Assembly (NCBI GenBank): GCA_026707445.1 | Contig: JAPOWV010000016.1 | Span: 6,758-70,757, forward strand | Direction of reading: 5' to 3' | From: Gammaproteobacteria bacterium | Lineage (GTDB): Bacteria; Pseudomonadota; Gammaproteobacteria; Steroidobacterales; Foliamicaceae | Length of the DNA stretch: 64,000 nt | Part shown: positions 46,860 to 63,606 of the stretch, in pieces | Layout: each line of letters starts with the position of its first letter | Numbering within the stretch: the stretch's first letter is position 1 | The notes under the pieces: model-generated | What the model was told of the DNA's origin: nothing | Database searches by the model: none | Seen by the model: the letters and a program-made list of their open reading frames with translations, nothing else | Program-made: the position numbers and the translations under genes

Positions 46860-46970
46860 TCTAGTACCGGCATGTGGCGGCAAGCGACATGGCCTCGATA
46901 GTACTACTGCGATCTGCGTAAAATAAAGGCTGTTGCCGATACCCTTTCGCGCATGTGAGGCGAGTGACAC

Positions 46971-47165
46971 GTGGACCTGTTCAGCTTTTTCTTCGACAAC
47001 GTGGGTGCGCTGTTCGCGCTCGCCTTCGTGCTGTTCAACCTGGCTGCCTGGGTGATGAGGCGCGTCCGGCAAAAGCGCCAGCAGGAACGGTACGGACACT
47101 ATCCGCCGGCGGTGCGGTCGGGCCGGCTGAATTACGACGAGTACAGAAAGCGACGCGACGACTGA
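46971..47165 (+). CDS. Small membrane protein (64 aa)
   Basis: The GTG start gives a hydrophobic N-terminus, FSFFFDNVGALFALAFVLFNLAAWV, then a basic tail. It lies upstream of the lipoprotein/kinase operon. No homology was recognised. Confidence 0.35.
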   Translation: MDLFSFFFDNVGALFALAFVLFNLAAWVMRRVRQKRQQERYGHYPPAVRSGRLNYDEYRKRRDD

Positions 47166-47244
47166 TTGGCGCATCAAATGCCTAAAGGGCCCGGGATCAT
47201 GCCGGTGGTATGCTAGTTTCAAATGTGAGGGTCGGCCAGCTGCA

Positions 47245-48516: not shown

Positions 48517-49742
48517 ACCGGTTGATCACGACTCTCGGCCTGGCTGCCTGCATCATTGTGCTGGGCGCCTGCACGTCCGCGCGCGAGGTCCAGTACACCC
48601 AGGTGGGGCTGCAGCGGGCGGAGGCCGAAATTGCACCGGAATCCCTGCTGAACGTGGGCATCCTGGTGTTTGATGCGGGGCTGCCCGAAGGCGCGAGCGA
48701 CCAGGAACTCAACGACCGTTTCATCTTTCCCGAGATTCGCCGCGCCGAGGCGCGCTTCATGCCGTACCACCTCAAGAACACGCTTGAGACTACCGGCTAT
48801 TGGGGGGCGGTAAGCGTCCTTCCCGAATACAGCCCGGTTGCGGATGTCGTGATTTCGGGCCGGATCGACCAATCGGACGGCTACAGCGCGCAACTGCGTG
48901 TCGGCGCCTGGGACTCTTCCGGCCGGCAGTGGTTCGAAAACAACTATGAGATGCTGGTCGCGGAGCAGGCCTACATTCGCAACACCGGTCCCGGCCAGGA
49001 CCCGTACCAGAACATCTATAACCGGATCGCCAATGACCTGCTGCAGGCGCGCGCGCAGTTGAGTTCCGGCGATTTGCAGCGCGTGCGCGAGATCAGCGAT
49101 CTGCGCTACGGACAGAGCCTGGTGCCGCAAGCCTTCAGCGGTTACCTGGAAGAGACCGGCAAGGGCCAGTATGAAGTCAGGCGCCTGCCGGCTGCCGACG
49201 AGCCCATGGTCAGTCGCATGCGCGAAGTGCGCGAACGGGAGTACGCGCTGATCGACGCCGTCAACGAGCATTACGCCAACCTCTACTACGGTCTGGGCCG
49301 GCCCTATACGGACTGGCGGCGGATGGCCCGTGAAGGCCGCCTGAGCTACGAGGAGATGCGCAGGTCTGCGAACACGCGCATGCTGCTCGGAGTCCTCGGG
49401 ATTCTCGGCGCGGTTGCATACGAGGCCAGCGGTGGCGACAACATGGGCGTGACCGGCACCATGATCCAGGGCGGCTTCATGGGAATACAGGGGAGCCTGA
49501 GCCGGCGCGAGGAAGCCAGGATGCACGCCGAGGCGCTGCGTGAGGTGGGCGAGTCCTTTGATGCCGAGGCCGAACCCATGGTAGTGGAACTCGAAGGCCA
49601 GACTCGCCGCTTGACCGGCTCCGCCGAGGAAAGGTTTCGCGAATGGCGCCGCCTGTTGCGGGAAATCTACGCCCGTGAGACCGGCGATCTTGAAACGCCG
49701 GGTGTGCAAGAGCCTGAGGGCACGTCCCTGCCGCGCTCCTGA
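48513..49742 (+). CDS. Lipoprotein of unknown function (409 aa)
   Basis: ATGA overlap with the upstream gene. Signal peptide plus lipobox LGAC. The C-terminal third contains a glycine-rich hydrophobic stretch (MLLGVLGILGAVAYEASGG...GTMIQGGFMGIQG). Confidence 0.65.
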   Translation: MNRLITTLGLAACIIVLGACTSAREVQYTQVGLQRAEAEIAPESLLNVGILVFDAGLPEGASDQELNDRFIFPEIRRAEARFMPYHLKNTLETTGYWGAVSVLPEYSPVADVVISGRIDQSDGYSAQLRVGAWDSSGRQWFENNYEMLVAEQAYIRNTGPGQDPYQNIYNRIANDLLQARAQLSSGDLQRVREISDLRYGQSLVPQAFSGYLEETGKGQYEVRRLPAADEPMVSRMREVREREYALIDAVNEHYANLYYGLGRPYTDWRRMAREGRLSYEEMRRSANTRMLLGVLGILGAVAYEASGGDNMGVTGTMIQGGFMGIQGSLSRREEARMHAEALREVGESFDAEAEPMVVELEGQTRRLTGSAEERFREWRRLLREIYARETGDLETPGVQEPEGTSLPRS

Positions 49743-49777
49743 AACGGACTCGAGAACGCCCCGTGCCCGGCGACTCG

Positions 49778-52096
49778 ATGACCCGAAGAAAACAAGGCGA
49801 GATGCTGGCAACCCGGTTTCGGCTGGTGCGCCCGTTGGGCTCCGGCGGACTGGGCGAGGTCTGGCTTGCGGAAGATGTTCGTGAAGGCCGTGAACGGGCC
49901 CTGAAGTTGCTGGCGGACGAACATGCACGGCAGCCGGCCCATATTGATCGCTTCCGGCGCGAATTCTCCGTCGCCCAGTCGCTGGTCCACCCGGCCATCG
50001 TGCGTCCGGATGAGTTCCTGTCCGACGGCAACAGCCATTTCTTCACGATGCCCGTGCTGCCGGGCGGCCATGTCGGAGAGCGGTCCGGCGAACCCTGGAG
50101 CGCCGCCGCAAGGCGCCTGCTGCCGGTTTGCGACGCCCTGGCGTATGCGCACCGCAAAGGCGTGGTGCATGGCGATATCAAGCCGCAGAACATTCTGCTG
50201 GACGAGTCCGGCGCGGCCTGCCTGACGGACTTCGGCGCGGCCGAGCTGCCGGACGCAGCCGATAACGGTCGGGGCCGGCGTTCCGGAGGTTCGCTGGCCT
50301 ATATGAGCCCGCAACGGCTTGAGGGCCGCCCGGCGCGGGTCAGCGATGACGTGTATGGGCTGGGCTGCGTCGTCTACGAGTTGTTGTGCGGCTTTCCGCC
50401 ATTCGCGCCGGATATCAGCGAAGAGGCCATTCGCAGCGCGGAACTGGCGCCCCCCGCCGCCCCCGCGGGGCAGCCGCAACTTCCCGACGAGCTGGCCGAA
50501 CTGGTTGGCGCGATGCTGGCGCGCGACGAGGACTCACGTCCGGTGACCATGCAGGCTGTGCGAACCGCCCTGGACGAAATACTGGCGGATTCCGCCACCA
50601 CCGAAGCCCCGTCACAGGCCGCCGCCATTGTCGCGAGGGCGCGCGCCGGCGCCCACGCCGACGACGGAGCGCCCCCGCCGGCGCTGCAACGCAGTTCCGG
50701 AGTGCCCGTGTGGGTGGCCTACGCATTGGGAGGCCTTCTGCTGGCGGCGGCAGCGGTCCTGTTCTTCGTTTTGCCGCGCTTCGCCGAGGAGCGCGCAAGC
50801 CGGCGCCCACCTCCCGAGCGTATTGTTCAGCAGGCGGAGGCGCCCCGCCAGGACATGCAGCTGTTGAGAATGCAGCGCGATGCGGCCGATGCGGCCATGG
50901 GCGACATGTTGCAGGACCGGAATTATCTGGCTTCCCTGCAGCCTTCCCTGTGGTCGGGCGGCGCCTGGGAACAGGCCATTGCCGAGGAGGAGAAGGGGGA
51001 CGACTTCTATCGCCGGCGCGAGTATCCCGACGCGCAGGGCGCATACGGAAAAGCGGGTGCGATGCTGCGTGAGCTGCGCGAACAGGCGCCCGATATTGGC
51101 CGCGGGGCCCTGGAAGAAGCGCTGCAGGCCATCGAATCGGGCGATCAGGCCGCCGCCCTGACGGAACTCGAAAAGGCCGGAATACTTCTCGGAGCGACCG
51201 ATCCGGAAGTGCAATCCGCGTCCCGGCGGGCGGCCCGGGTGCCGGAAACCATGCAGGCCGTGGCCGAAGCGCGGGCCAGCGTGCGTGAAGGCGGCCTGGA
51301 GGAGCAGCGGACGGCCTGGCAGGCGGTGCTCCGGATCGACCCGGAACGGCAGTCCGCCCGCAGGGAGCTGTCGGCGGTCAATGCACGGATCGATCGGCAA
51401 TTGTTCAATTCGCGGATGTCGCGGGGACATGCCGCGCTCGGTGAGGGCGATGTCGAAGCGGCCCGGACCGCGTTCGAGGCCGCCGCGAAACAGCGTCCGA
51501 ACGATCCCGGGCCGGTCGAGGCCCTTGCCGCGCTGGAACTGGAGGAACGCGGGCAGCGGCTGGCGCAACTCCAGGCGGCCGCAATGGCGGGGAGGTTCGC
51601 GGAAGACTGGCCCAGGGCGGCCGTGAATTACCGCGGCATGCTGGAGATCGACTCGAATATCGTTGCGGCGCAGCGCGGACTGGCGGAGTCGGAGCGGCGG
51701 GCGCGCCTGGACGACGCGTTGGAGAACACCATCGCCAACGCCCGGTCGCTGAACCGGGACGATGCCTGGCAAGACGGCAACCGCCTGCTGGACGAAGCCG
51801 CGGCGATTCCCGATCGCGGTTCGCGCCTGGCCGGGCAGATAGGACGTCTTGAGCAGGCCCTGACGGTGGCGGCCACGCCGGCGCCGGTGTGGCTGCGCTC
51901 CGACGGACTTACCGAGGTGACCATCTTTCACGTCGGCCGCCTGGGAAGTTTCGACAGCCGCATGCTTGAGCTCAGGCCCGGCGCCTACACCGCCGTAGGG
52001 ACACGCGACGGCTACCGTGACGTGCGCCGCGAGTTCATCGTGGCGCCGGAAGGACTGCCGGAACCGCTGGTCCTGATCTGTACGGACCCCATCTGA
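49778..52096 (+). CDS. Ser/Thr protein kinase (non-RD type) with a TM segment, TPR-like helical periplasmic region and a PEGA-like C-terminus
   Basis: Kinase subdomains: LGSGGLGEVWLA (G-loop), RALKLL (Lys), VVHGDIKPQNILL (HGD in place of HRD), TDFGAA, and YMSPQRL. A TM helix (WVAYALGGLLLAAAAVLFFVL) is followed by helical repeats. The start is ATG 49778, GTG 49763 or ATG 49802. Confidence 0.88.
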   Translation: MTRRKQGEMLATRFRLVRPLGSGGLGEVWLAEDVREGRERALKLLADEHARQPAHIDRFRREFSVAQSLVHPAIVRPDEFLSDGNSHFFTMPVLPGGHVGERSGEPWSAAARRLLPVCDALAYAHRKGVVHGDIKPQNILLDESGAACLTDFGAAELPDAADNGRGRRSGGSLAYMSPQRLEGRPARVSDDVYGLGCVVYELLCGFPPFAPDISEEAIRSAELAPPAAPAGQPQLPDELAELVGAMLARDEDSRPVTMQAVRTALDEILADSATTEAPSQAAAIVARARAGAHADDGAPPPALQRSSGVPVWVAYALGGLLLAAAAVLFFVLPRFAEERASRRPPPERIVQQAEAPRQDMQLLRMQRDAADAAMGDMLQDRNYLASLQPSLWSGGAWEQAIAEEEKGDDFYRRREYPDAQGAYGKAGAMLRELREQAPDIGRGALEEALQAIESGDQAAALTELEKAGILLGATDPEVQSASRRAARVPETMQAVAEARASVREGGLEEQRTAWQAVLRIDPERQSARRELSAVNARIDRQLFNSRMSRGHAALGEGDVEAARTAFEAAAKQRPNDPGPVEALAALELEERGQRLAQLQAAAMAGRFAEDWPRAAVNYRGMLEIDSNIVAAQRGLAESERRARLDDALENTIANARSLNRDDAWQDGNRLLDEAAAIPDRGSRLAGQIGRLEQALTVAATPAPVWLRSDGLTEVTIFHVGRLGSFDSRMLELRPGAYTAVGTRDGYRDVRREFIVAPEGLPEPLVLICTDPI

Positions 52097-52113
52097 AGCG
52101 GGAAGCGTGAGAC

Positions 52114-54531
52114 ATGGCGCGTGACGTGATTCTCGTGCTTCCCGAAGGGGAGCGCAGACTGGCGGAGAAGGAGTTGCCTGTCCTGCTGGGCAGCGGCGCG
52201 GGCGCGCACATCCGCCTCCCCGGACCGGCCGGCGCGCCGCCGGCTGCCAGCATCAATCTCATTGACGACCGCGCTCTGGTGCAGTGCTATCCGGGTATTT
52301 CCGGCCTTTCGCTTAACGGCGAGCCGATCAGCGGCGCCCGTTGGCTGGAGCAGGGCGACCGGCTTGCCATTGCCGGGGTCGAGGTAACGCTGGATTCGGT
52401 TGCTCCGGAAACGATGCGCCTGAATGTGAGCTACCTGGCGAGGGCATGGGACACGCGGCCGCCCGAACCGGCGGACGACGAAGACGCCCCGGCGGCGATT
52501 GCGGTTCGCAGGCCCGCCGGGGATTCGCGTTCCGCGCCGGCGCACAAGGGCCGCCTGTGGCTGCGCCTGGCGGCGGGCGTGGTCCTGGCGCTGCTGGGCG
52601 GCAGCGCCTTGTTCGTGTTCACCGCCGAAGGCGTGCTGATCGAAGTGGAGCCCGCCGACGTTGCCGTTGAAGTTGACGCGCTGCTGCCCACTCCGCACGT
52701 GGGGACCCGCTATCTACTCTGGAAAGGCAGGTACCGGGTGCGGGCGGAACGGGAGCGCTATTACCCGCTGGACGAAGAGATCGAGGTGCGTGGCGAAGGC
52801 GGTCAGGAGTTTCGCTTCGCCATGCGGCTGTTGCCCGGACGGGTGGTCGTGGATGCCGTCGCCGGCGCGGAGATCCGCATCGAGGGAATGGACGAGGTGT
52901 TTTCGCCCGGCGAGGAAATTTCGCTGGACCCGGGCACGTACGCCCTTAAGGTCAGCGCGTCCCGCTACAAGGACATGGACGTTCCGCTGGCCGTGGAGGG
53001 CGGCGGCGGACTGGAACCGTTCACGGCCGAACTGGAGCCGGACTGGGCGGAGATCACGGCCGGCAGCGATCCGCCCGGGGCTGAATTGCGCTCGGAAGGA
53101 CAGATCCTGGGGGTAACGCCGGCGACCGTGGAATTGCTGTCCGGCGAGCGCATGCTGTCGTTCTCAAGGCCGGGATTCGCCACGCATCGCGAACGGCTGA
53201 CCGTGGTTGCGGGCTCGCCGCAGGTCCTGCCGACCATCCGCCTGCAACCTGCCGCCGGCGTGCTTCGGGTGCAGACCGATCCGCCCGGCGCCAGCATAAC
53301 CGTGGATGGGGACTTTCGCGGAGGATCGCCTGCGACTGTTGAAGTGAGTCCGGACCGAGCGCACCGGGTCGTTGTGTCGCGGGCGGGCTACGAGTCGCAG
53401 GAGCGCACGGTGACGCTGGGGCGCGGCGCCGAGCAGTCCCTGAGCATTCGTCTCGAGCCGCGCCTGGGAACGATTCGCGTCTTGAGCCGCCCTCCCGGAG
53501 CGCAGGTCAGCGTCAACGGGCGGCCCGCGGGACGGACTCCGCTGGACCTGCAATTGCCCTCGACCGAGCAGCAGCTCGAGTTCAGCCTGGAAGGCTACGT
53601 GGCGCAGTCGCGCGAGGTGGTGCCGCAGCCCGCCTACCCCCAGGAGGTGGAGGTCGAACTCCTGACGCCCCGGCAACAGATGCTGGCCGCCCAGCCCACG
53701 GAAATTGAAACGTCGCAGGGCGCTACCATGGTCATGCTTTCCCCGGGCGAGTTCGAGATGGGGTCGCAGCGCGGCTCGCAGGGATGGCGGAACAACGAGG
53801 TGCGCCGCAGGATCAGGCTCGCGAAACGCTACTACCTGGGCGTGAAGGAAGTCACCAACCGCGAATTTCGCGCGTTCATTCCCAACCACACCTCCGGCGC
53901 GGAGCGTTTCCGCTCGCTGGCGGCCGACAGCAGCCCGGCGGTGAACGTCGACTGGCAGGCCGCCGCGGCCTTCTGCAACTGGCTGAGTTCGCAGGAAAAC
54001 CTGCCGCTTCAGTATCAGAGCCGATCCGGCCGGCTGATTCCGGTGACCGAGCCGGGCGCCGGCTATCGACTGCCGACCGAGGCGGAGTGGGTCTGGGCGG
54101 CCCGCTACCGGGGCGGCGCGGGGAATTCGCGTTACCCCTGGGGCGAGCGTATGCCTCCTCCGGTGCGCTCGGGCAACTATGCCGACCAGTCGGCTAGCGG
54201 CCTTATACCCATCGTGCTGAACGCCTACAACGACAATTTCCCCTTTACGGCCCCGGTCGGTACGTTTCCGGCCAACCCACTGGGCTTCTACGATCTCGGC
54301 GGCAATGCGGCTGAGTGGACGGGCGACTACTACGGTGCGGATACGCTATATCCCGACTTCGAGGTGGACCCGCGCGGTCCGCAGGAAGGGCGCTTTTACG
54401 TGATCCGCGGTTCGAGTTGGCAGCATGGCACGCTGCGCGAACTTCGCTGGGCATATCGCGATCGTGGCGATGAAGCACGGCTCGATGTAGGATTTCGCCT
54501 GGCGCGCTACGCCGAATTGCAGGAACCGTAA
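52114..54531 (+). CDS. FHA - TM - multiple PEGA domains - FGE-sulfatase (SUMF1/EgtB/PvdO-like) domain protein
   Basis: N-terminal FHA-like region (LPVLLGSGAGAHIRL...LSLNGEPISGARWLEQGDRLAIAGVEVTL) and a TM helix (LRLAAGVVLALLGGSALFVF). At least three PEGA-like units (e.g. LRVQTDPPGASITVDGDFRGGSPATVEV, IRVLSRPPGAQVSVNGRPAGRTPLDLQL). The C-terminal FGE block is YLGVKEVTNREF...GYRLPTEAEWVWAAR...GFYDLGGNAAEW...RGSSW...GFRLARY. Confidence 0.82.
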   Translation: MARDVILVLPEGERRLAEKELPVLLGSGAGAHIRLPGPAGAPPAASINLIDDRALVQCYPGISGLSLNGEPISGARWLEQGDRLAIAGVEVTLDSVAPETMRLNVSYLARAWDTRPPEPADDEDAPAAIAVRRPAGDSRSAPAHKGRLWLRLAAGVVLALLGGSALFVFTAEGVLIEVEPADVAVEVDALLPTPHVGTRYLLWKGRYRVRAERERYYPLDEEIEVRGEGGQEFRFAMRLLPGRVVVDAVAGAEIRIEGMDEVFSPGEEISLDPGTYALKVSASRYKDMDVPLAVEGGGGLEPFTAELEPDWAEITAGSDPPGAELRSEGQILGVTPATVELLSGERMLSFSRPGFATHRERLTVVAGSPQVLPTIRLQPAAGVLRVQTDPPGASITVDGDFRGGSPATVEVSPDRAHRVVVSRAGYESQERTVTLGRGAEQSLSIRLEPRLGTIRVLSRPPGAQVSVNGRPAGRTPLDLQLPSTEQQLEFSLEGYVAQSREVVPQPAYPQEVEVELLTPRQQMLAAQPTEIETSQGATMVMLSPGEFEMGSQRGSQGWRNNEVRRRIRLAKRYYLGVKEVTNREFRAFIPNHTSGAERFRSLAADSSPAVNVDWQAAAAFCNWLSSQENLPLQYQSRSGRLIPVTEPGAGYRLPTEAEWVWAARYRGGAGNSRYPWGERMPPPVRSGNYADQSASGLIPIVLNAYNDNFPFTAPVGTFPANPLGFYDLGGNAAEWTGDYYGADTLYPDFEVDPRGPQEGRFYVIRGSSWQHGTLRELRWAYRDRGDEARLDVGFRLARYAELQEP

Positions 54532-54902
54532 TGAAGAAGGTCATCGCAGTCGCCGCCCTAATCGGCCTGGCCGTGGGCCTGACCTGGGCCGCCGAACGGG
54601 TGGGCGGCTGGCTGGGGTTCGCTCAGCAGGACAGGATCGTGGAGGACGCCGAACCCGGCAACGAAAGCGCCTCCCCTGGGAGTGGGGGTGTCCCGTCCTC
54701 CAACGAAACTCCCCTCGATGCGCCCGCCCGGGGAGAAGACGAAGCCCCCGCACAGCAAGAACTTTCCGCCGAGGTCACTTCGATCGAGGACGACCTGGCC
54801 CGCATCAAGGAAGCGCTCGGCAGCGATGAGGTCCTGGAGGAGTTCACGCCGGAGGAGCCCCTGTCGGCGGACAATCCGGTAGTCTGGCCAACCGATATTT
54901 GA
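54531..54902 (+). CDS. Small exported or membrane-anchored acidic protein (123 aa)
   Basis: 1-nt overlap with the upstream stop. Hydrophobic N-terminus MKKVIAVAALIGLAVGLTWA, then a Pro/Glu/Ser-rich acidic region. It is the last gene of the operon. Confidence 0.55.
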   Translation: MKKVIAVAALIGLAVGLTWAAERVGGWLGFAQQDRIVEDAEPGNESASPGSGGVPSSNETPLDAPARGEDEAPAQQELSAEVTSIEDDLARIKEALGSDEVLEEFTPEEPLSADNPVVWPTDI

Positions 54903-54918: not shown

Positions 54919-56412
54919 TCAGGCGCGAAGACGGATCCGGTAGTCCAGGTCCAGCCTTTCCGCCAGAGCGCGCAAGCGCCGCTGGACGGTGTTCCCGACC
55001 AGGATGTGGGCGCCTTCGGGCGCCGTCAGCACGAGTTCTCCCGGTTTCCGTTGCAGTCGGAATTGCTCGAGGACGCTGACGGCCCCGCCGGAAATCGTGT
55101 AGGCGAGGCGCATGGCCAGCCCGATGCAGACTGCCCGGCGTTTTTCCCTCTTGTCGACGAGTTGGCCGAGGCCCAGGCGCTTCAAGGCCGGGGTAATGGC
55201 GGCGTGTCGCGATGCGACGGCCAGCCCGAGCATGATCCGCTCGCGGTGATCGGCGCCGGTCAACGGCATCCGCAATATACGCAGGAACACCTGTTCGGCC
55301 CGGTAGTCGGGATGTTCGGACCAGCCGATGTCGGACAGGTGACAGGCAGCCAGCCTGAGCTTGTCCGGCACGACTCCTTCCAGCGCCGGCGCGATCCAGC
55401 CGGCCAGCAAGTCGCCCCCCGAACCTCCTCGGCCCATGCGGCGGGCTGCGCTCTCGCATAGCCAAAGCAGCGGGTCTATCTGCTGTTCGAGCGGAGTCAG
55501 GGCTTCGTACAGGCAGCCTTCGCGCAGGCCGTTGGCGGAGAACACGACCCGCTCGGCGCCGCTGCGTTCCAGCAGGCATTCCAGGGCGACCGCCGCAAAG
55601 GGCAGGGATTCCAGGCGGTCGGCCCGCAGTCCCTTGGCCGATTCCAGGCGCGCGCGGGGCCAGCCGGCCAGCATCGCGCAGAATTCCGAAGCGTCGCGGG
55701 CTTCCAGCGCATAGTGATGTATGACATGCAGGGGGTAGCCCGATTCGTCCATGTGGATCCGGGCCAACGCCCGCCAGGAGCCTCCCACCAGGTATAGAGA
55801 CTGCCGCTGCGCCCGCGGCAGCCAGTCGAGCCCGTCAAGCTGGTCCCCAATGGCCTCCCGGCTTTCCCCAATAGGCTCCTCGCCGTTTCCGCGCACCGTG
55901 CCCAGCGGCAGCGATACGCGCTCGGCCACGCTCCCGTTGTCGAGAAGCGTCAGTTCCAGGCTGGCGCCGCCGAGATCGGCCGCAACGCCGCTCGCCCCGG
56001 GAATTGCGCTGAGGACTCCGCCGGCTGAAACTTCGGCTTCCCGGTCTCCCGTCAGCAAGCGGACGCCCAGGCCGCATTCGTTGCGCACGGTCTCGAGGAA
56101 CTCCGGTCCGTTGCTTGCCTCCCGGACGGCTGCGGTCGCTACCGCCTGTACATCGAGAACCCCCATTTGCGGGCACAGTCGGGCGAACCGGTGCAGGCTT
56201 TCCAGGGTCATCCCGATGCCGTCTTCGGACATTCTTCCGGTCCGGTCCAGCCCGCGGCCCAGACCGCACAGGACTTTTTCGTTGAATATCGGCAAGGGCG
56301 CCCGCCCGCCGTTCTCGTAGACCACCAGGCGCACGGAGTTCGAGCCTATGTCGATCACGGCTACCGGCGCCTCGCTTGGGGTCGCGGGGCTGGTTCGCAA
56401 TACGCCCGGCAT
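54919..56412 (-). CDS. ppx: Exopolyphosphatase (Ppx/GppA family)
   Basis: VAVIDIGSNSVRLVVYE, DLGGASLELT, LVGGSWRALAR and a C-terminal HD-like domain. It lies downstream of ppk1. Confidence 0.9.
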   Translation of the reverse strand: MPGVLRTSPATPSEAPVAVIDIGSNSVRLVVYENGGRAPLPIFNEKVLCGLGRGLDRTGRMSEDGIGMTLESLHRFARLCPQMGVLDVQAVATAAVREASNGPEFLETVRNECGLGVRLLTGDREAEVSAGGVLSAIPGASGVAADLGGASLELTLLDNGSVAERVSLPLGTVRGNGEEPIGESREAIGDQLDGLDWLPRAQRQSLYLVGGSWRALARIHMDESGYPLHVIHHYALEARDASEFCAMLAGWPRARLESAKGLRADRLESLPFAAVALECLLERSGAERVVFSANGLREGCLYEALTPLEQQIDPLLWLCESAARRMGRGGSGGDLLAGWIAPALEGVVPDKLRLAACHLSDIGWSEHPDYRAEQVFLRILRMPLTGADHRERIMLGLAVASRHAAITPALKRLGLGQLVDKREKRRAVCIGLAMRLAYTISGGAVSVLEQFRLQRKPGELVLTAPEGAHILVGNTVQRRLRALAERLDLDYRIRLRA

Positions 56413-56464: not shown

Positions 56465-58672
56465 TTAAACGGCGGCTTTGACCAGTGTCGGGCGGGGTTT
56501 GTCTTCCGCGGCGGCAGGGTCCCCGGTGTCGGGGAACAGTTCGCCGGGCATGGCCGGCCGCGACTCCCGCAGGGCGCTGCCCCGGCCGGAAAGGCTGGGG
56601 TTGGTCATAAACCAGGTGTGGGCGCTGAAATCGCCCGATTGATGGTCAAGCCGGCGGTAGGCGCCGTCGGGTTCGAGTTGCCAGCTCTGCATCACGTCGA
56701 AGCGGTTCGCCATCAGGACCTGCTCCACGAGCTGCCGCTTGACCGTTTCGTTCTCGATCGGCACCAGCGTCTCCACTCGATGGTGCAGGTTGCGGGGCAT
56801 CCAGTCGGCGGACGATACGTAAACTTTGCTCTCGGTGGAAGGAAGCCGGTGGCCGGCGCCGAAACACATGACGCGGGAGTGCTCCAGGAACCTGCCGACC
56901 ATGCTGCGCACCTGGATGTTCTCCGACATGCCGGGCACGCCCGGGCGCAGGCAGCAAATGCCCCGAACGTAGAGTTCGATCCGCACGCCGGCCTGGCTCG
57001 CGTGGTAGAGACAGTCGATGATCTCGGGGTCCACCAGTGAGTTGAGTTTGGCCCAGATCTCCGCCGGACGCCCGGCGCGGGCATGGGCGACTTCGTCTTC
57101 GATCAGCTCGACCAGGGTGTTCTTCAGTTCGGCGGGCGCATAAACCAGCTTTTCCATGTCCTCCGGAGTCGCGTAGCCTGTCATGTAATTGAAAAGGCGC
57201 GCGGTATCGCGCCCCAGCGCCGCGTCGCAGGTGAAGAAGCTGAGGTCCGAGTAAACGCGCGCGTTGACCGGATGGTAGTTGCCGGTGCCGAAATGGGTGT
57301 AGGTCCGCAGTTTTCCCGCTTCCCTGCGCACCACCAGCGAGACTTTGGCGTGGGTCTTGAGTTCCATGAAGCCGTAGACCACCTGCACGCCGGCGCGCTC
57401 CATCTCCTGTGCCCAGCGGATGTTCGCCGCTTCGTCGAAGCGCGCCCGAAGCTCGACCATGGCGGTGACCAGCTTGCCGGCCTCGGCGGCGGCGATCAGC
57501 GCCTCGACGATCGGCGAGTCCTCGGAAGTGCGGTAGAAGGTCTGCTTGATCGCCACGACCGCCGGGTCCTCGGTGGCGCGGCGCAGGAATTGCACGACCA
57601 CGTCGAAGCTCTCGTACGGATGCTGCACGACGAAGTCCTTGGCCCGTATCGCGGCGAGGATGTCGCCGCCATATTCGCGGACCCGTTCGGGGAAGCGCAC
57701 GTTGAGCGGCTCGTGCTGCAGGTCGCGGCGCTGGTCCGTGATGATCTGCTTGATGTCCGCCAGCCCCAGCATGCCGTCGATGTTGAAGACGTGCGCGTGC
57801 GAGGCATTGAACGCCTTGAGCACGAACCGGCGGAAGTTCTTCGGCATGCCGGCCGCCACCTCCACGCGGATGACGTTGCCCCTGCGCCGCCGAAGCAGGG
57901 CGCTCTCGAAGGTACGCACCAGGTCTTCGGCTTCCTCGTCGATTTCAAGGTCGCTGTCACGGCTGATGCGGAAGATGCCGTGGCCCAGGATCTTCATGCC
58001 GGGGAACAGCAGCCTGAAGTTGCGGGCGATGATTTCCTCGACGGCGACGAAGCGCAGGGCCTTGCCGGGGACCCGCACGAACCGCTCGATCTGGGGCGGC
58101 ACCAGCACCAGGCCGTTGATCTCGTGCTTGTCCGCGGGCCGCATCAGCCGCAGCACGTACACCAGGCAGCCGGTCTGAATGAAGGGGAAGGGGTGCGCCG
58201 TGTCGACCGCCTGGGGGGTCAGTACCGGAAACAACTGGTTTTCGAACCATCGCGACAGCCACTCGCGGGACCGCTCGCCCAGTTCCTCGGGTTTTACCAC
58301 CGCCACTCCGGCATCGCGGCATTCGGCCAGCAATTGTGCGCTGCGCCTGGATTGGGCCTTGAGGAGCTTCTTTACCTGTTCACGTATGGCTTCGAGTTGT
58401 TCGCCGGGGGTCAGTCCGTCATCGCTGGTCTTCGTGACGCCCGCAGCCACCTGCGCCATGAGGCCGGCCGCGCGCACCATGTAGAACTCGTCGAGGTTGC
58501 TGGCCGAGATGGACAGAAACCGCACGCGCTCCAGCAGCGGGTGGTTCTCGTTGCCGGCTTCCTCCAGCACCCGCGTGTTGAATTCCAGCCAGGACAGTTC
58601 GCGGTTGATCAGGCGGCCGGCGACGCGTTCCGCCTCGCTGAGCGCCCGTGGCTTGCCGGACGCAGGCGTCAT
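56465..58672 (-). CDS. ppk: Polyphosphate kinase 1
   Basis: RLINRELSWLEFNTRVLEEA, FLSISASNLDEFYMVR, and two PLD-like HKD regions (TGNYHPVNARVYSDL; FLEHSRV). The start is ATG 58672, or 58732 for the longer ORF. Confidence 0.93.
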   Translation of the reverse strand: MTPASGKPRALSEAERVAGRLINRELSWLEFNTRVLEEAGNENHPLLERVRFLSISASNLDEFYMVRAAGLMAQVAAGVTKTSDDGLTPGEQLEAIREQVKKLLKAQSRRSAQLLAECRDAGVAVVKPEELGERSREWLSRWFENQLFPVLTPQAVDTAHPFPFIQTGCLVYVLRLMRPADKHEINGLVLVPPQIERFVRVPGKALRFVAVEEIIARNFRLLFPGMKILGHGIFRISRDSDLEIDEEAEDLVRTFESALLRRRRGNVIRVEVAAGMPKNFRRFVLKAFNASHAHVFNIDGMLGLADIKQIITDQRRDLQHEPLNVRFPERVREYGGDILAAIRAKDFVVQHPYESFDVVVQFLRRATEDPAVVAIKQTFYRTSEDSPIVEALIAAAEAGKLVTAMVELRARFDEAANIRWAQEMERAGVQVVYGFMELKTHAKVSLVVRREAGKLRTYTHFGTGNYHPVNARVYSDLSFFTCDAALGRDTARLFNYMTGYATPEDMEKLVYAPAELKNTLVELIEDEVAHARAGRPAEIWAKLNSLVDPEIIDCLYHASQAGVRIELYVRGICCLRPGVPGMSENIQVRSMVGRFLEHSRVMCFGAGHRLPSTESKVYVSSADWMPRNLHHRVETLVPIENETVKRQLVEQVLMANRFDVMQSWQLEPDGAYRRLDHQSGDFSAHTWFMTNPSLSGRGSALRESRPAMPGELFPDTGDPAAAEDKPRPTLVKAAV

Positions 58673-58762
58673 TTGCGTGTTCCGGGATGGCGTGGAATGT
58701 GCCCCATGAACGGAGTAGCATACAGGAGTCATGAGTATTCACGCAGTCCCGGGAGCGAGCGC

Positions 58763-59299
58763 ATGAAGCGCCTGTGGCTGCTGCGGCATGCCAAGGCGGG
58801 GCCGTATTCCGTCGACGATTTCGAGCGGGCGCTGGCCCCCAGGGGCCGGAAGAACGCGCCGGCGATGGGTGAGAAACTGGCGGCCGTGGGATGCGCTCCC
58901 GAGAGGATCCTCTGCTCCGCCGGGCGGAGGGCGGTGGAGACGATGTGCGGTGTCCTGCCCAGCCTTCCCGCCGATCTCGGCATCAAGGTCACGCGAAGGC
59001 TGTACACCTTCAGCCCGGGGGCCGTGTTGCAGTGTCTGCGCGAACTGCCGGGGGATACCGGCGACGTCATGGTGGTGGGCCATAACCCGGCACTGCAGGA
59101 ACTGGCGCTGTACCTGGCAGGCCGGGGCGAAGAGGAAGCTTTCGCGGTGCTCCATGGCAAGTTTCCCACCTGCGCCGTGGCCGAGCTGGAGTTTCCTGAG
59201 TCGCCGCACGCGACGGACTGGGACGAAGGCAGCGCATATCTTCGGCGCGTACTGACGCCCCGCCCCCCGCGGTACCTGCGGGCTCCCCTGGTTGACTAG
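58763..59299 (+). CDS. Histidine phosphatase superfamily protein, SixA-like phosphohistidine phosphatase
   Basis: ATG at 58763 gives MKRLWLLRHAKAG (the RHA/G motif)...ERALAPRGRK...MVVGHNPALQEL. It is only the last 178 codons of the 738-aa track ORF, whose remainder is antisense to ppk. Confidence 0.8.
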   Translation: MKRLWLLRHAKAGPYSVDDFERALAPRGRKNAPAMGEKLAAVGCAPERILCSAGRRAVETMCGVLPSLPADLGIKVTRRLYTFSPGAVLQCLRELPGDTGDVMVVGHNPALQELALYLAGRGEEEAFAVLHGKFPTCAVAELEFPESPHATDWDEGSAYLRRVLTPRPPRYLRAPLVD

Positions 59300-59309
59300 C
59301 GAGCAATCG

Positions 59310-60107
59310 ATGAGAAGACAGTTACCGGTCGAATTCGTTTTTCAGCTTTTCTCGCTGTTCCTGTCGGTGATCCTGGTACACGCCATGTACGTGGCCTGGA
59401 TCCGCCCGCAGGCCAACGCGGTCATGGAAGAGCAGCGGATACAGCTGGAACAGGACGCCGACTACGTGCCCGAACGCTCCCTGTACGTGATCGTGCGCGA
59501 TTTCGAGCAGGAGGCCTGCCTGATCCTGGCGCTTTGGGCGCTGGCGATCATGGGCTACAAGGCCCGCGGGGCGCTGCGCGAACGCTCGCTGCTGCAGCGC
59601 GATCTGCTGCCGCTGGCGGAAGGGGTTCGCATCCTGCCGGAGGACACCCGCGAGCACGCGCGCCAATTGCGTGCGCTGCCGGAATCGCAACAGCGCCTGC
59701 TGTTGCCGCGGGTATTGCTCAGCGCGCTGCAGCGATTCGGCGCGACGGGCAATGTGCAGGACGTCTCTTCGGCCACCCAGACGCTGGTCAACGCTGAGGC
59801 CGAGCGGCTGGAATCGGAACTGTCCATGATCCGGTATATCGCATGGGCGATACCCTCGATCGGCTTTATCGGTACCGTGCGCGGGATCGGCCAGGCGCTG
59901 ACGCTCGCCTACCGGGCCGTGGAAGGCGACATCAGCGGCGTGACCGAGAGCCTGGGCGTGGCCTTCAATTCAACCTTCTTTGCCCTGCTGGTCAGCATTT
60001 TCATCATGTTTCTGGTCCACCAGCTTCAATTGTTGCAGGAGCGACTGGTCTTCGAGACCTCGGATTACTGCGACGAACGGCTGATCCGCCGCCTGCAGGG
60101 CGACTGA
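59310..60107 (+). CDS. MotA/TolQ/ExbB-family proton channel protein
   Basis: Four predicted TM helices. The C-terminal signature is LSMIRYIAWAIPSIGFIGTVRGIGQAL...GVAFNSTFFALLVSIFIMFLVHQL. The start is ATG 59310 (TTG 59292 is possible), 10 nt after the sixA-like stop. Confidence 0.8.
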   Translation: MRRQLPVEFVFQLFSLFLSVILVHAMYVAWIRPQANAVMEEQRIQLEQDADYVPERSLYVIVRDFEQEACLILALWALAIMGYKARGALRERSLLQRDLLPLAEGVRILPEDTREHARQLRALPESQQRLLLPRVLLSALQRFGATGNVQDVSSATQTLVNAEAERLESELSMIRYIAWAIPSIGFIGTVRGIGQALTLAYRAVEGDISGVTESLGVAFNSTFFALLVSIFIMFLVHQLQLLQERLVFETSDYCDERLIRRLQGD

Positions 60108-60126
60108 GCCTGGAGATAGCCAAGGC

Positions 60127-61539
60127 ATGGCGCTGGTCGCGCTGGAGGTCAACGGAGCGGCGCTGGTAGGCGCTACCGCCGCCGGCGTGCTGTTCAACGA
60201 GCCGGGCGTTGCGCTGGTGCAAAAGCGGCGCGTGGCGTTCGGGCGCGCAGCGGTCGAAGAGGCGCGACGGGACCCCGCAAGCGGTTACCGGAATTACTGG
60301 GAACTGCTGTCGGATGACCCCCTGCCCAGGCCGGCGCGGGGATTTCGCAGCTATGCGGACCTGGCCCACGGGCATATGCAGGGGCTTTGGAAGCGCTTCC
60401 GGGATGCGGTGGGAGACATAAGCGGTGTGGTCCTGGTCATTCCCGCCGGCGTCGCGGAAGACCGCCTTGCGCTGCTGCTGGGGATCGCCGAGGAAGCCGG
60501 ACTGCCCGTTGCCGGGCTGGTTGAAAGCGGAGTGGCCGCGGTGCGTGGCGCCGCCGCGGGCCGCGCCTGCCTGCACATTGAAGCAACCGCCGAACGACTG
60601 GCGGTATCCCGGCTCATCCCGCATGACGGGCGAATCCGGCGCGAGGAGATCCTGTTCGACGGCCGTCCCGGATTGCGTCACCTGCGGGCGGCGATGACCG
60701 CACACGTGGCCGGACGGTTCGTGGCGGGTTCCCGCTTTGACCCGCTGGACCTGCCCGCCACCGAGCAGGAGCTGGCCGGGCAACTCGACTCGTGGCTTGA
60801 GGCGGTCCTGGCCGGCGGCGAACTCGCGATCGAACTTGAAGCGGCGCCGGTGACCGCTACCGCGGTCCTGGGCCGCGATGACTTCCTTGCTTCGATCGAA
60901 CGCTTGCTGGGGGCCCCGGGAAATCGTCTGCGATCCTGGTGCACGGGTCCGGGGGCCGCGGACGTATACCTGTCGGGGACGCTTGCAGAGGTTCCCGGCT
61001 GCGCCGAGGTGTTTGCCCGCCTGCTCGCCGCCGAGGTCCAGGTCCTGCCGGCGGGCGCTGCGGCGCTGGGCGCGCTGGAGCGTTTCGTTCCGGTGGTCGG
61101 CGCGGGGGATCGATATGTGCTGCTCAAGTCCCTGCCGGCCGTGGACTCGGCGGGCGGCCCGTACGGGACACGCACTGCCCGGCCGGATGCCGGCGCCTCG
61201 CCGGCCGGCGGAGACGGGGAAACGGGAGAACGGACGCCGACGCATGTCGTGTTCGGTGGCCGGGCCTGGCGCATCGGCGCCGAAGGCCTGCATCTGGGAT
61301 CGTCGCCGCAACCCGGGGGCCTGTCGATCGTGCTCTCGCCGGAAGGCGGGATTTCGCGTAACCACTGCACCGTGGTGCTGGAGAACGGGCAGGCGGTGTT
61401 GCATGACCACAGCCGTTACGGAACCAGCCTGAACGGCGCGCCGGTGGCCGATTCGGCGCCACTGCGCGGCGGCGACGTGGTGGGCGTGGGGCCGCTGGAG
61501 TTCCTGATCACGCGCGAGGTGGGCGGCGATGGCCCGTAG
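60127..61539 (+). CDS. Degenerate Hsp70/actin-fold protein with a C-terminal FHA domain
   Basis: The N-terminal ~330 aa follow the Hsp70-type pattern (VVLVIPAGVAEDRLALLLGIAEEAGLPVAGLVESGVAAV; DVYLSGTLAEVPG), but the phosphate-1 DxG motif is replaced (VALEVNGAAL). The C-terminus is a canonical FHA (GISRNHCTVV, HDHSRYGTSLNGAPV, LRGGDVVGVGPLEFLI). Confidence 0.7.
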   Translation: MALVALEVNGAALVGATAAGVLFNEPGVALVQKRRVAFGRAAVEEARRDPASGYRNYWELLSDDPLPRPARGFRSYADLAHGHMQGLWKRFRDAVGDISGVVLVIPAGVAEDRLALLLGIAEEAGLPVAGLVESGVAAVRGAAAGRACLHIEATAERLAVSRLIPHDGRIRREEILFDGRPGLRHLRAAMTAHVAGRFVAGSRFDPLDLPATEQELAGQLDSWLEAVLAGGELAIELEAAPVTATAVLGRDDFLASIERLLGAPGNRLRSWCTGPGAADVYLSGTLAEVPGCAEVFARLLAAEVQVLPAGAAALGALERFVPVVGAGDRYVLLKSLPAVDSAGGPYGTRTARPDAGASPAGGDGETGERTPTHVVFGGRAWRIGAEGLHLGSSPQPGGLSIVLSPEGGISRNHCTVVLENGQAVLHDHSRYGTSLNGAPVADSAPLRGGDVVGVGPLEFLITREVGGDGP

Positions 61540-62626
61540 GCGCTTTCACGTATTCAGCATGTCGTTTCTGGACATCATTTCCTGCGGCTTCGGCGCGGTC
61601 GTGCTGTTCTTCGTGATCATCAACGCCCAGGTGCGCCTGCGGGCCGATGCCGAGCGCATCGATCTGCTCAGCGAATCCACACGGCTGGAAGAGGAGGTCC
61701 TGGAAGGGCGAAAGGACCTGCTGCAGTTACGCGGCGAGCGCGACACGCTCGACGAGCGCCGCGCCACGGCAATCGAGGAGTTGAGAAAGCTGCGCGAACG
61801 CCTTGCCGCCTTGCTGGCGGAGCTGGCGGAATACGAGCGCCTGGGGACGCAAAGCCAGGAGTCGGTCGAGCGGCTTCGGGTCGACGTGGACCGGCTCAGG
61901 GAAATGCAGGCGGAACTTGAGGCGCGGGTCGCCGAGGCGGAGGAAGGAACGGGGCAGCGGGTGCGTGGCTTTGAAGGCGAGGGCGCGCGGCAATACCTGA
62001 CGGGCATGCAGATGGGTGGCGACCGCGTAATGATTCTCGTGGATGCGTCCGCCAGCATGCTGGGGCGCACCTATATCGACGTCTTGCGGTTTCGCCTGAT
62101 GGACGAGGAACTCAAGCCCCGGGCTCCCAAATGGGTCCAGGTCGTGAATTCGGTGGACTGGATCACCACGCGTCTGGAGCCGCAGCAGAGATTTCAGGTC
62201 TACATCTTCGGGGTGGAGCACAGAAGCATCCTCGAGGGCACGGACGGCGAGTGGCTGAGCGTGGCCGACGGGGCGCGGGTAGGCGAAGCGATCGAGGCCC
62301 TGCGCAATTTTGCGCCGAGGGGCGGGACCAGCCTGCATGCGGCGATGCGCGCCATCCGCGCCATGCAGCCGCTGCCGGACAATGTGTACCTGTTGACCGA
62401 CGGACTGCCGACGCAGGGCGCCAGTCCTCCCTCGCGGGTCGGATGGGTGGATACGCGGGCGCGCGAGCGGTTCTTTACCCGCGCGGTGCGCGACCTGCCC
62501 TCGGGGATTCCGGTCAATGTGCTGTTCTACCCGATGGACGGGGACCCGGCCGCGACCGGCTACTACTGGCTGATGGCTTCGCAGTCCCGGGGATCGTTCG
62601 TCAGCGTTTCCCGCGACTGGCCCTGA
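61529..62626 (+). CDS. ExbD/TolR/MotB-like single-pass membrane protein fused to a periplasmic coiled coil and a vWA domain
   Basis: 11-nt overlap with the upstream gene. A basic N-terminus plus a TM helix with a lone Asp (MARRRFHVFSMSFLDIISCGFGAVVLFFVI). About 100 aa of E/R/L-rich heptad-like sequence follow. The vWA domain has a MIDAS (DRVMILVDASASM ... GGTSL ... VYLLTDG). Confidence 0.7.
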   Translation: MARRRFHVFSMSFLDIISCGFGAVVLFFVIINAQVRLRADAERIDLLSESTRLEEEVLEGRKDLLQLRGERDTLDERRATAIEELRKLRERLAALLAELAEYERLGTQSQESVERLRVDVDRLREMQAELEARVAEAEEGTGQRVRGFEGEGARQYLTGMQMGGDRVMILVDASASMLGRTYIDVLRFRLMDEELKPRAPKWVQVVNSVDWITTRLEPQQRFQVYIFGVEHRSILEGTDGEWLSVADGARVGEAIEALRNFAPRGGTSLHAAMRAIRAMQPLPDNVYLLTDGLPTQGASPPSRVGWVDTRARERFFTRAVRDLPSGIPVNVLFYPMDGDPAATGYYWLMASQSRGSFVSVSRDWP

Positions 62627-62814: not shown

Positions 62815-63606
62815 ATGGACTTGCAGTTGAACGAAAAGGTTGCGCTGATTACCGGAGCCACCGGTGGTTTGGGTGCAGCCTGCGCGCGTGAACTGGCTCG
62901 CGAGGGTGCAATGTTGTTTCTCTGCGCCCGCACGGAGAGCGATCTTGGGGAACTGGCGGGGGAACTGAGCAGGGCCGGTTGCGAAAAGGTGCGCTGGCAC
63001 GCGGCGGACCTGACTTCCCCCGAGGCGGCGGGCAGGGTTGCAGCTTCCGCGGAAGAGGCCTTCGGCAGGGTGGACGTGCTGGTGAACTGCGCCGGGGCGT
63101 CGGCAGGCGGTCTGTTCTGGGAAATACCGGATTCGGCCTGGGAGGACAGCATGGCGCTCAAGTTCATGGCCACCATCCGGATGATCCGCGCGGTGCTGCC
63201 CGGAATGATCGAGCGGCGCTACGGGCGAATCGTGACCCTGGTGGGCAATTCGGGGCGCGAACCGGACCCCCGCATGCTGCCGGGCGCCGCGGCGAACGCC
63301 GGTTTGCTCGCGGTCACCACCGGACTGGCGCGGGAGGTGGCCGAACACGGCGTGGTCATCAACGCCGTCAATCCCGGTCCCACGAGGACGGGCCGCTGGG
63401 AGGGCATGATGGAATCGTTCGCCGCCCGCAGCGGGAAGACGCCCGGGGAGGAAGAACAGAGTTTCCTCGATGCGATTCCCCAGAAGAGGTTGGGAACGAC
63501 CGGCGAAATCGCCCGGCTGGTTACATTTCTGGCGAGCGACGCCGCCCCGCACGTTACCGGGCGCTCGATTACGGCCGACGGCGGGGCTGCCCGCGCAATT
63601 CTTTGA
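62815..63606 (+). CDS. Short-chain dehydrogenase/reductase (SDR) family oxidoreductase
   Basis: ALITGATGGLGAACA (the TGxxxGxG motif), NCAG, and a C-terminal ITADGG. The start is ATG 62815 or 62803. Confidence 0.85.
   Translation: MDLQLNEKVALITGATGGLGAACARELAREGAMLFLCARTESDLGELAGELSRAGCEKVRWHAADLTSPEAAGRVAASAEEAFGRVDVLVNCAGASAGGLFWEIPDSAWEDSMALKFMATIRMIRAVLPGMIERRYGRIVTLVGNSGREPDPRMLPGAAANAGLLAVTTGLAREVAEHGVVINAVNPGPTRTGRWEGMMESFAARSGKTPGEEEQSFLDAIPQKRLGTTGEIARLVTFLASDAAPHVTGRSITADGGAARAIL

Follow-up and report, generated by a model that had tools for sequence, protein, structure and literature searches.

A TolQ-like channel and a membrane-tethered vWA protein in a nine-gene proteobacterial operon: a probable proton-driven motor

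Proton-driven motors of 5:2 stoichiometry power flagella, TonB uptake, Tol-Pal, gliding, the type IX secretion system (T9SS) and Zorya. A locus in the genome of a gammaproteobacterium raises the question whether such a motor might also act through a protein ending in a vWA (von Willebrand factor A) domain. The locus is contained in the stretch of 64,000 nucleotides analysed here (the window; positions 6,758 to 70,757 of contig JAPOWV010000016.1 in assembly GCA_026707445.1), where three co-directional genes, termed g1, g2 and g3, encode a MotA/TolQ/ExbB-type channel, a protein combining an Hsp70-like fold with an FHA domain, and a membrane-anchored vWA protein. An initial annotation of this DNA had treated the three genes as a module of its own and had proposed a proton-powered, phosphorylation-gated actuator for which no described system was recognised. 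Our analysis, which directly addresses domain identities, folds, the conservation of residues, gene order and the co-variation of kinase and FHA elements, leads us to think that a motor driven by the proton motive force, resembling MotAB, ExbBD and TolQR in its 5:2 type, probably has g1 and g3 as its core, a view which draws on sequence features and on analogy. Our confidence in the specific partners of this motor is much lower.

The channel and its vWA partner

By its sequence, g1 is a TolQ/ExbB-type channel. The assignment is based on a match to the Pfam family MotA_ExbB (PF01618; residues 133-247, E=1e-14, 54.8 bits at a cut-off of 22.9) and on the retention of both pore threonines, and it agrees with the initial annotation. 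Among named families, g1 scores best with models of TolQ and, in the PDB, with TolQ chains, and the protein aligns without gaps to residues 104-204 of TolQ from E. coli (8odt_A), with T189 and T222 falling on T145 and T178 of TolQ. Both threonines are invariant in the 73 g1-family sequences compared (73/73). For the investigation of gene order, we used 80 loci plus gene-called contigs, taken from a scan of one genome per species in which relatives of g3 were identified in at least 586 genomes, and we express presence as the number of loci with a gene relative to those where the contig has room for it. On this basis, g1 is found next to relatives of g3 in 68/68 loci.

The protein g3 starts with a basic N-terminus (MARRR) and continues into a single transmembrane (TM) helix with the motif SFLD(I/V)xxCGFGA, whose aspartate (Asp15) is found in 82 of 82 g3 sequences, with F13, L14, G20 and G22 being equally invariant. 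Judged from the positive-inside distribution of charges and by analogy, its N-terminus would reside in the cytoplasm and its vWA domain in the periplasm. In a model obtained with AlphaFold2 (AF2), the membrane helix leads into a stalk of about 108 helical residues, which would measure about 16 nm if straight and which finds only weak matches to coiled-coil-type hidden Markov models, and further into a vWA part with a pLDDT of about 90. A Foldseek search against the PDB returns vWA domains on top, followed in later rows by related alpha/beta folds (Sec23/24 trunk, BRCA1-A, Ro60), and the Pfam families VWA_2 and VWA_3 score 23.6-23.9 bits, just under their cut-off of 27. The metal ion-dependent adhesion site (MIDAS) is complete (D172-x-S174-x-S176, T267, D291) and invariant save for the alternation of Thr and Ser at position 267. 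With more than 3800 database matches and 2350 clusters at 50% identity, the family is large, far beyond what chance would produce, and its length of approximately 353-367 residues is near-constant. The anatomy that the initial annotation had read from the sequence, consisting of a basic N-terminus, one TM helix with an embedded Asp, a helical stretch and a vWA domain with intact MIDAS, is thus essentially upheld by the AF2 model, the Foldseek search and the conservation pattern. The same holds for its statement that the periplasmic part adopts neither a TolR/ExbD fold nor that of an OmpA-like peptidoglycan-binding domain, since model and search find a helical stalk and a vWA domain instead.

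Several individual members of the family deserve mention. The g3 homologue P0058 carries the precomputed Pfam annotation PF27578, which is absent from the matches of our local Pfam scan of g3, and this recent entry may already cover part of the family. P0276 apparently joins two vWA domains in one chain, an X-type followed or preceded by a g3-type domain in tandem, X being the g3 paralogue described below. In P0303, which contains a vWA domain of this type, the N-terminal region is presumably a BlaR1/M56-like membrane domain, as judged by eye.

The label 'ExbD-like', which had been given to the N-terminus of g3, could not be upheld in terms of descent and is to be understood as an analogy, with homology not being demonstrable. 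The Pfam models of ExbD and MotB do not match the first 47 residues of g3 and X at E<=10, and a profile of 20 g3 and X helices compared to PDB chains at the same threshold found no ExbD, TolR or MotB, with NDUFB4 and SecY as the only, chance, matches. When aligned with hhalign to a mini-profile of TolR and ExbD, the helix places its Asp on the Asp of these proteins with a probability of 1.5%. The test has power at this length, because the N-terminus of TolR, truncated to equal length, finds ExbD with E~1e-7. As homology is not shown, the role of g3 as B-type subunit rests on its topology and invariant Asp, the threonine ring of its partner, the adjacency of both genes and the lack of tolR, exbD or motB. 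No gene of the latter type is present in any gene-called operon.

The same observations bear on an alternative, in which g3 and X would be force transducers akin to TolA, TonB or GltG that attach with their membrane helix to the exterior of the g1 pentamer, leaving the pore either empty or filled with a TolR or ExbD protein encoded elsewhere. Such an arrangement would be compatible with the lack of detectable likeness between the g3 helix and ExbD or TolR, and with the long periplasmic extension, which is typical of transducers; another vWA family, described as TolA/TonB-like, has been proposed to bind the edge of the motor (PMC12204202). It is at odds with the invariance of the Asp in g3, from which the SHLS/His motif of TolA and TonB is absent, with the preservation of the g1 threonine ring as if paired with an Asp, and with the lack of tolR or exbD beside g1 in the operons examined. 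Moreover, it is the protein F encoded upstream, and not g3, that shares with GltG the succession of FHA domain, TM helix and extension. We thus regard a transducer role of g3 as clearly unlikely and return to its assignment as inner subunit of the motor.

A motor of this composition has been proposed computationally, with Idiomarina loihiensis as seed, in a study on the evolution of periplasmic force transducers (PMC12204202, 'Origin and Evolution of Bacterial Periplasmic Force Transducers', Mol Biol Evol 2025, Fig. 4c,d). There, a tolQ-like gene of Proteobacteria is paired with a vWA protein carrying an Asp in its pore helix, mostly as heterologous vWA pairs and without tolR or exbD, and an AlphaFold3 model that combines five tolQ-like subunits with a dimer of vWA proteins places the pair of Asp residues inside the threonine ring. 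The earlier statement that no such system had been described is therefore out of date. The predicted motors and the operon investigated here are alike in the combination of a tolQ-like protein with a membrane-tethered vWA protein, in the Asp of its helix and in the absence of an SHLS motif and of tolR, exbD and motB. Their heterologous vWA pairs correspond to g3 and X, which are found together in 72/72 loci, whereas the window and its close relatives L002-L005 are without a second vWA protein. This likening of the published family to g3 is by description, as neither the text nor the supplements examined contain a seed sequence or accession. Neither a kinase nor an Hsp70-like protein is mentioned in the text of the study, where the sole match to a word starting with 'FHA' is FhaC; no search of it was made for partners of the PEGA, FGE or lipoprotein type.

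The nine-gene operon and its phosphorylation layer

The view of the three genes as a self-contained module had to be abandoned, since synteny identifies them as part of the 3' end of a nine-gene operon with the conserved order U2, U1, K, F, S, g1, g2, g3 and X. Outside of the clade of the window, X is present in 72/72 loci, and the remaining genes are similarly widespread (F 60/60, K 54/54, U1 51/52). The co-conservation of the triad itself holds for g1 and only in part for g2, which is found in 66/71 loci and is missing in some lineages. X is a g3 paralogue of 330 residues with 24% identity, which shares the helix motif, the Asp (77 of 78 sequences), the stalk and the DxSxS motif. Deviating layouts were observed in the Myxococcales metagenome-assembled genome (MAG) L038, where F, K and U1 are inverted and located downstream of X, and in L076, where g1 follows X rather than preceding g2.

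The upstream genes encode proteins of the cell envelope, among them two predicted lipoproteins, U2 and U1 (Table 1), neither of which has a match in Pfam or NCBIfam. U2 contains about 330 residues of Gly/Ser-rich low complexity in tandem units (GGSQGSM, GGSGGQQ) and ends in a motif of about 45 residues (DIPxGxDDDVVARQLREAAMxExDPxxRExLWxEYRKY) that is found directly upstream of U1. At 50-65% identity across loci, this motif is better conserved than most of the operon, and it is a candidate for a tethered ligand. U1 has a Gly-rich hydrophobic patch near its C-terminus, and its translation probably begins with the Met near 48513. A minus-strand open reading frame (ORF) at 46341-47744 that overlaps U2 is probably spurious.

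The protein K combines a Ser/Thr kinase domain (Pkinase PF00069, E=7e-39, with HGD and DFG motifs present) with one TM helix and, in the periplasm, a TPR-like helical region that ends in a PEGA-like domain. Its periplasmic part is conserved in 54/54 loci, but the kinase domain is restricted to a subset of lineages. In F, PEGA repeats (E=4e-42) are followed by an FGE-sulfatase domain (E=1.5e-41), in which both catalytic cysteines of FGE are presumably missing. Its best match in NCBIfam is GldK (E=5.8e-32, 111 bits compared to a cut-off of 350), with GldK/PorK and GldJ leading. The N-terminus of F aligns with the FHA domain of g2 (hhalign probability 96.9%), with the phospho-binding residues being absent. 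The slot of S is occupied by a small ORF of 46-116 residues in 6/7 distinct gene-called loci, with a fast-evolving sequence; in L088 no gene was called at this place and a gap of 137 nt separates F from the MotA_ExbB gene. S and X have no match in NCBIfam.

The AF2 model of g2 (mean pLDDT 86) consists of an N-terminal domain of about 335 residues and an FHA domain, connected by a disordered linker (residues 341-367). Foldseek places DnaK and Hsp70 nucleotide-binding domains (NBDs) in the PDB on top of the list for the N-terminal domain (E~3e-15, target-normalised TM-score of 0.68), and a Pfam scan of g2 does not match HSP70. In place of the Gly-rich phosphate loops and of the adenosine motif, g2 has sequences that are not conserved as such (ALEVNGAAL, LHIEATAER, LSGTLAEVPG), and neither the AF2 model nor the motif columns contain a substrate-binding domain of Hsp70. 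On account of these degenerate motifs we reject an Hsp70-type ATPase activity, and the domain is probably a non-catalytic scaffold. The FHA domain is recognised by PF00498 (residues 399-455, E=2.3e-9, 38 bits at a cut-off of 20.7), scores best with the TagH/Fha model of T6SS (the type VI secretion system), and keeps G391, S410-R411, H413 and N436. The early description of g2 as Hsp70 fold with degenerate motifs joined to an FHA domain is thus correct, except that the latter is not fully canonical. Altogether, profile and structure searches agree with the domains initially assigned, with g1 and the FHA domain of g2 exceeding their Pfam cut-offs and the vWA domain of g3 being recovered by its fold.

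The distribution of these domains reveals a pronounced co-variation. Among 35 kinase-positive loci, the SRxH motif of g2 is intact in 33, with a degenerate FHA domain in one and no detected g2 in another. Conversely, it is intact in none of the 26 kinase-negative loci, 19 of which have a degenerate FHA domain, as read directly in eight Halieaceae-type proteins, and seven no detected g2. The two exceptions among the kinase-positive loci are L038, where the result is an artefact of layout with g2 being present across the inverted arrangement, and L042. In its pattern of presence, the FHA-like domain of F resembles the kinase and the intact FHA domain of g2. In kinase-less loci of Halieaceae/Luminiphilus and relatives (L046, L052, L061, L066-L075, L077, L079-L081), g2 retains its Hsp70-like domain, while its FHA domain has lost SRxH and S..GT, with the framework THV...NG...GD remaining. 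More distant lineages, including Methylophaga and the alphaproteobacterium Denitrobaculum, encode U2, U1, a kinase-less TPR protein, F without its FHA-like domain, the TolQ-like gene, the vWA gene and X, with a small protein in 2/3 and without g2. In L086, a distant genome, the kinase-less operon is located between IS240-family transposase genes, with an HSP70/MreB-like gene upstream on the opposite strand. Although the counts are not phylogenetically independent, it follows from them that the elements of kinase and FHA type go together, with the pair of channel and vWA protein as the invariant core. Since g1, g3 and X are kept without kinase, intact FHA domain or g2, it is this pair rather than the signalling trio that constitutes the conserved unit. 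The proposal of gating by phosphorylation has thus gained real support from the co-variation, and is weakened by the not fully canonical FHA domain. This phospho-layer, with its modular gain and loss, appears to be undescribed.

The co-variation also has to be considered in light of a different explanation, where the system would be a phospho-signalling switch similar to TerY-P triads, ArnA/ArnB or DRA0331-0334, with the FHA domain binding a phosphorylated vWA protein and g1 acting only as channel or anchor that performs no mechanical work. Both bacteria and archaea do repeatedly group genes for vWA, FHA and Ser/Thr kinase proteins, whose products form assemblies that depend on phosphorylation, and K, g2 and g3 share one operon. 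Yet, the distribution of charges and analogy place the vWA domain in the periplasm and the FHA domain in the cytoplasm, and thus on opposite sides of the membrane, the proton-relay residues are invariant, and many lineages dispense with kinase, intact FHA domain or g2 altogether while retaining the core. Such a switch therefore appears improbable, somewhat more so than the transducer role discussed above.

The copy in the window and its genomic setting

The operon in the window is atypical. Its upstream genes are all present (47245-54902), but S is separated from g1 by an insertion of ppx, ppk1 and a sixA-like gene, an arrangement that tblastn-based synteny finds only in the window and in L002-L005; in other lineages, these genes do not belong to the machine. 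The gap between the sixA-like gene and g1 measures 10 nt in the window and 600-900 nt in L002 and L003. X is absent from the window, where the search gave only a cross-match to g3, and from the 10-kb flanks of L002-L005; its place after g3 in the window is taken by a gene of an SDR-family dehydrogenase (~62860-63606). At the protein level, the window is 99% identical to L005 (RHO1_bin_71, a sponge-type gammaproteobacterial MAG), and its identity to genomes of Candidatus Foliamicus is 81-83%.

The dense packing of the three genes noted at the outset was confirmed in the DNA. The sixA-like gene ends with a TAG at 59297-59299, the ATG of g1 follows 10 nt later at 59310, the spacer between g1 and g2 has 19 nt, and g3 starts with an ATG at 61529 ahead of the TAG of g2 at 61537-61539, resulting in an overlap of 11 nt. 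All peptide strings quoted in the initial annotation were found in the translations. An alternative TTG start of g1 at 59292 has no support, as homologues have 265 residues and align from the ATG. Between 58600 and 63000 no promoter-like site exceeds background, and the two terminator-like matches in this range are both inside g3 and fewer than the 2.6 expected from shuffled sequences.

Table 1. Coordinates of operon genes, inserted genes and domains in the window.
Feature	Position	Strand	Length	Description and basis
U2	47245-48516	+		Predicted lipoprotein, lipobox LASC (sequence, hydropathy); first operon gene
U1	48474-49742	+	~400 aa	Predicted lipoprotein, lipobox LGAC
K	49763-52096	+		Ser/Thr kinase aa 20-267, TM aa ~315-340, TPR-like periplasmic region
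F	52114-54531	+		FHA-like aa 13-92, TM aa ~148-176, four PEGA repeats, C-terminal FGE-sulfatase fold
S	54531-54902	+	123 aa	Acidic, signal-anchored or secreted
ppx	54919-56412	-		Named from translation
ppk1	56465-58732	-		Named from translation
sixA-like gene	~58772-59299	+		His_Phos_1 in Pfam
g1	59310-60107	+	265 aa	TolQ/ExbB-type A subunit, presumed pentameric proton channel
g1 pore threonines	T189 at 59874-59876, T222 at 59973-59975	+		TolQ alignment
g2	60127-61539	+	470 aa	Hsp70-NBD fold and FHA domain
g2 N-terminal domain, aa 1-335	60127-61131	+		Hsp70 NBD fold; degenerate phosphate-1, phosphate-2 and adenosine motifs
g2 FHA domain, aa 372-465	61240-61521	+		PF00498
g3	61529-62626	+	365 aa	Predicted pore-helix/stalk/vWA subunit
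g3 N-terminus and trans-pore-type helix, aa 9-33	61529-61627	+		D15 at 61571-61573
g3 helical stalk, aa 34-142, predicted periplasmic	61628-61954	+		AF2 helices 9-105 and 110-142
g3 vWA domain, aa 160-360, predicted periplasmic	62006-62608	+		Foldseek, MIDAS residues

The genomic setting has consequences for a potential role in anti-phage defence, where a MotAB-type motor would serve as sensor as in Zorya, a system which shows that 5:2 motors can be employed for this purpose. In favour of such a relationship is a weak match of g1 to the ZorA model of PADLOC (E=0.017, 12 bits), but g2 and g3 have no significant match in this collection, and g1 comprises only 265 residues compared to ZorA with its long cytoplasmic tail, with g3 equally lacking a ZorB-like peptidoglycan-binding domain. 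There are no genes for nucleases or other effectors and no defence-island context. Instead, the operon is a single-copy element with a stable place among housekeeping genes, without GC anomaly (in the window, GC is 0.65-0.72 and uniform between g1-g3 and their surroundings), and a tblastn search with g3 found no match among 72,556 plasmids. With PADLOC models providing nothing meaningful and in light of the missing plasmid matches, we have rejected a defence system and consider this explanation as the least probable of those discussed.

Relation to known machines and proposed mechanism

Apart from the predicted tolQ-like/vWA motors, a literature search for TolQ, MotA or ExbB in combination with vWA, FHA, kinase, PEGA or FGE retrieved from the library covered only unrelated vWA, FHA and kinase modules, and a survey of vWA conflict systems (eLife 2020) does not mention MotA or TolQ. 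Partial resemblance is found in several well-characterised machines. TolQR and ExbBD share with g1 and g3 a homologous A subunit, in which the threonines corresponding to T145 and T178 of TolQ are kept, an inner subunit with cytoplasmic N-terminus and a single Asp-bearing helix, and the order of A before B. In contrast to these systems, g3 has no TolR/ExbD-type periplasmic fold and no detectable sequence likeness in its helix, and the operon contains no TolA or TonB gene, with the putative output, stalk and vWA domain, fused to the B-type subunit.

In the Agl-Glt machinery of Myxococcus, a pentamer of the TolQ-like AglR encloses a heterodimeric inner pair (AglQ/AglS), GltG, which docks onto the pentamer, shows the layout of F with its FHA domain, TM helix and long periplasmic extension, and a vWA/MIDAS domain forms the binding end of the force chain (CglB). 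Unlike in the present case, this vWA domain belongs to an outer-membrane lipoprotein adhesin and not to a motor subunit, there is neither a kinase nor an Hsp70-like protein, and no Glt homologue is encoded in the operon. T9SS contains a 5:2 motor (GldLM) whose inner dimer reaches with a long periplasmic extension to a protein of the FGE-sulfatase fold (GldK, the best NCBIfam match of F). However, GldL and GldM do not resemble TolQ and TolR in sequence and arrange their charge pair differently, and F, rather than being part of a lipoprotein ring, uses a TM helix and PEGA stalk as its anchor in the inner membrane, with no other T9SS genes found. The TagQ-TagR-PpkA-Fha1 pathway of T6SS offers a parallel for the regulatory part, combining a lipoprotein, a periplasmic FGE-family protein (TagR, COG1262), a TM Ser/Thr kinase and, for the activation of a machine in the membrane, a protein with an FHA domain. 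In this pathway, a vWA domain in the periplasm is part of PpkA itself. The operon differs from this pathway by the absence of T6SS genes and of the PppA phosphatase, by the nature of the regulated machine, which would be a proton motor, and by the placement of the vWA domain on a motor subunit.

These similarities raise the question whether the motor would serve a surface machinery for secretion or gliding, as do GldLM-GldKN of T9SS or Agl-Glt, rather than envelope maintenance as in Tol-Pal, which is a special case of the motor that we propose. The FGE fold of F, scoring best with GldK/PorK and GldJ, the two lipoproteins and the parallels to Agl-Glt in the heterodimeric inner pair, the FHA-TM-extension protein and the vWA domain would all be consistent with such a function. 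Conversely, the score of F for GldK is far under its cut-off, the operon encodes neither an outer-membrane barrel or secretin nor a homologue of T9SS or Glt components, and carriers are mostly planktonic or sediment Gammaproteobacteria, which are not known to glide. We thus consider a surface machinery to be unlikely, although less so than a transducer role of g3.

Combining the described features, we infer a 5:2 stoichiometry, a coupling to protons, a ligand of the vWA domain, a substrate of the kinase and a cellular role in either envelope maintenance or surface machinery, which together could define the following mechanism. A pentamer of g1 would surround the two membrane helices of the inner subunits, where Asp15 of g3 would take up and release protons against the ring formed by T189 and T222 of g1, and the resulting flow of protons would cause a rotation, or a power stroke or pull, of the inner dimer on its partner. 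This dimer would consist of g3 and X in most genomes, and would be a homodimer of g3 in the clade of the window, because X is absent from locus and flanks. The stalk of approximately 16 nm would place the MIDAS heads into the periplasm, where the metal site could grip a partner, either periplasmic or in the outer membrane, by one of its acidic residues; a similar height could plausibly be reached by the FGE domain of F on its PEGA stalk and by the tethered C-terminal motif of U2. In the lineage of the window, the phospho-layer would have been added in the form of a kinase on the TPR protein, an FHA-like domain on F and the cytoplasmic g2. K would phosphorylate a cytoplasmic target and g2 would dock with its FHA domain onto the resulting phosphothreonine, thereby acting as clutch, scaffold or assembly factor, either where the channel faces the cytoplasm or on the basic N-terminal tails of g3.

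Several observations weigh against this interpretation. The 5:2 assembly and the geometry of Asp and threonines are taken from analogy and from a model published for what is possibly a different subfamily, sequence homology of the g3 helix to ExbD, TolR or MotB is not detectable although the control with TolR works, and the confidence of AF2 for helix and stalk of g3 is low (pLDDT 38-74). In the FHA domain of g2, the canonical arginine following G391 is missing, with position 392 being Ser, Thr or Ala throughout the family. As a consequence, binding of phosphothreonine is not assured; that R411, which is conserved next to S410, would compensate for this loss is a conjecture. The operon contains no phosphatase gene, and the counts of kinase and FHA elements are not corrected for phylogeny, with loci that are not independent and that perhaps reflect few events of gain or loss. 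Finally, in the clade of the window X is lacking and the operon is split by ppx/ppk, and the local system could for this reason be degenerate.

Collectively, our study suggests that the product of the operon is probably a TolQ-like motor driven by protons, in which a metal-dependent vWA domain sits at the tip of a long stalk on the inner subunit and which is regulated by a kinase in the lineage of the window. Its core architecture is already contained in the literature as prediction, whereas the wider operon appears to be undescribed. In a more speculative extension, which we put forward tentatively and consider as possible rather than probable, it would be an unrecognised trans-envelope machine of marine and sediment Proteobacteria, in which a TolQ-type motor spins or pulls a vWA 'hand' on a stalk of fixed length that acts on lipoprotein or FGE-fold partners close to the outer membrane, with a eukaryote-like Ser/Thr kinase, FHA domains and a pseudo-Hsp70 clutch acquired in one large lineage, and it could thus constitute the first 5:2 motor gated by the phosphorylation of threonine. 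Its carriers include the abundant marine groups Halieaceae, Woeseiaceae and the sponge-associated Ca. Foliamicus, as well as a few cultured strains, among them Congregibacter variabilis IMCC43200, Biformimicrobium ophioploci NKW57, HTCC2080, Denitrobaculum tricleocarpae and Methylophaga. New output modules of 5:2 motors have each uncovered new envelope biology, and the fusion of the putative output element, a stalk with MIDAS-containing vWA head, to the pore subunit would offer a simple and genetically tractable case for the conversion of rotation in the membrane into work in the periplasm. The layer of kinase, FHA domain and pseudo-Hsp70, gained and lost en bloc, would in turn provide a natural experiment on how such a motor is switched on and off.

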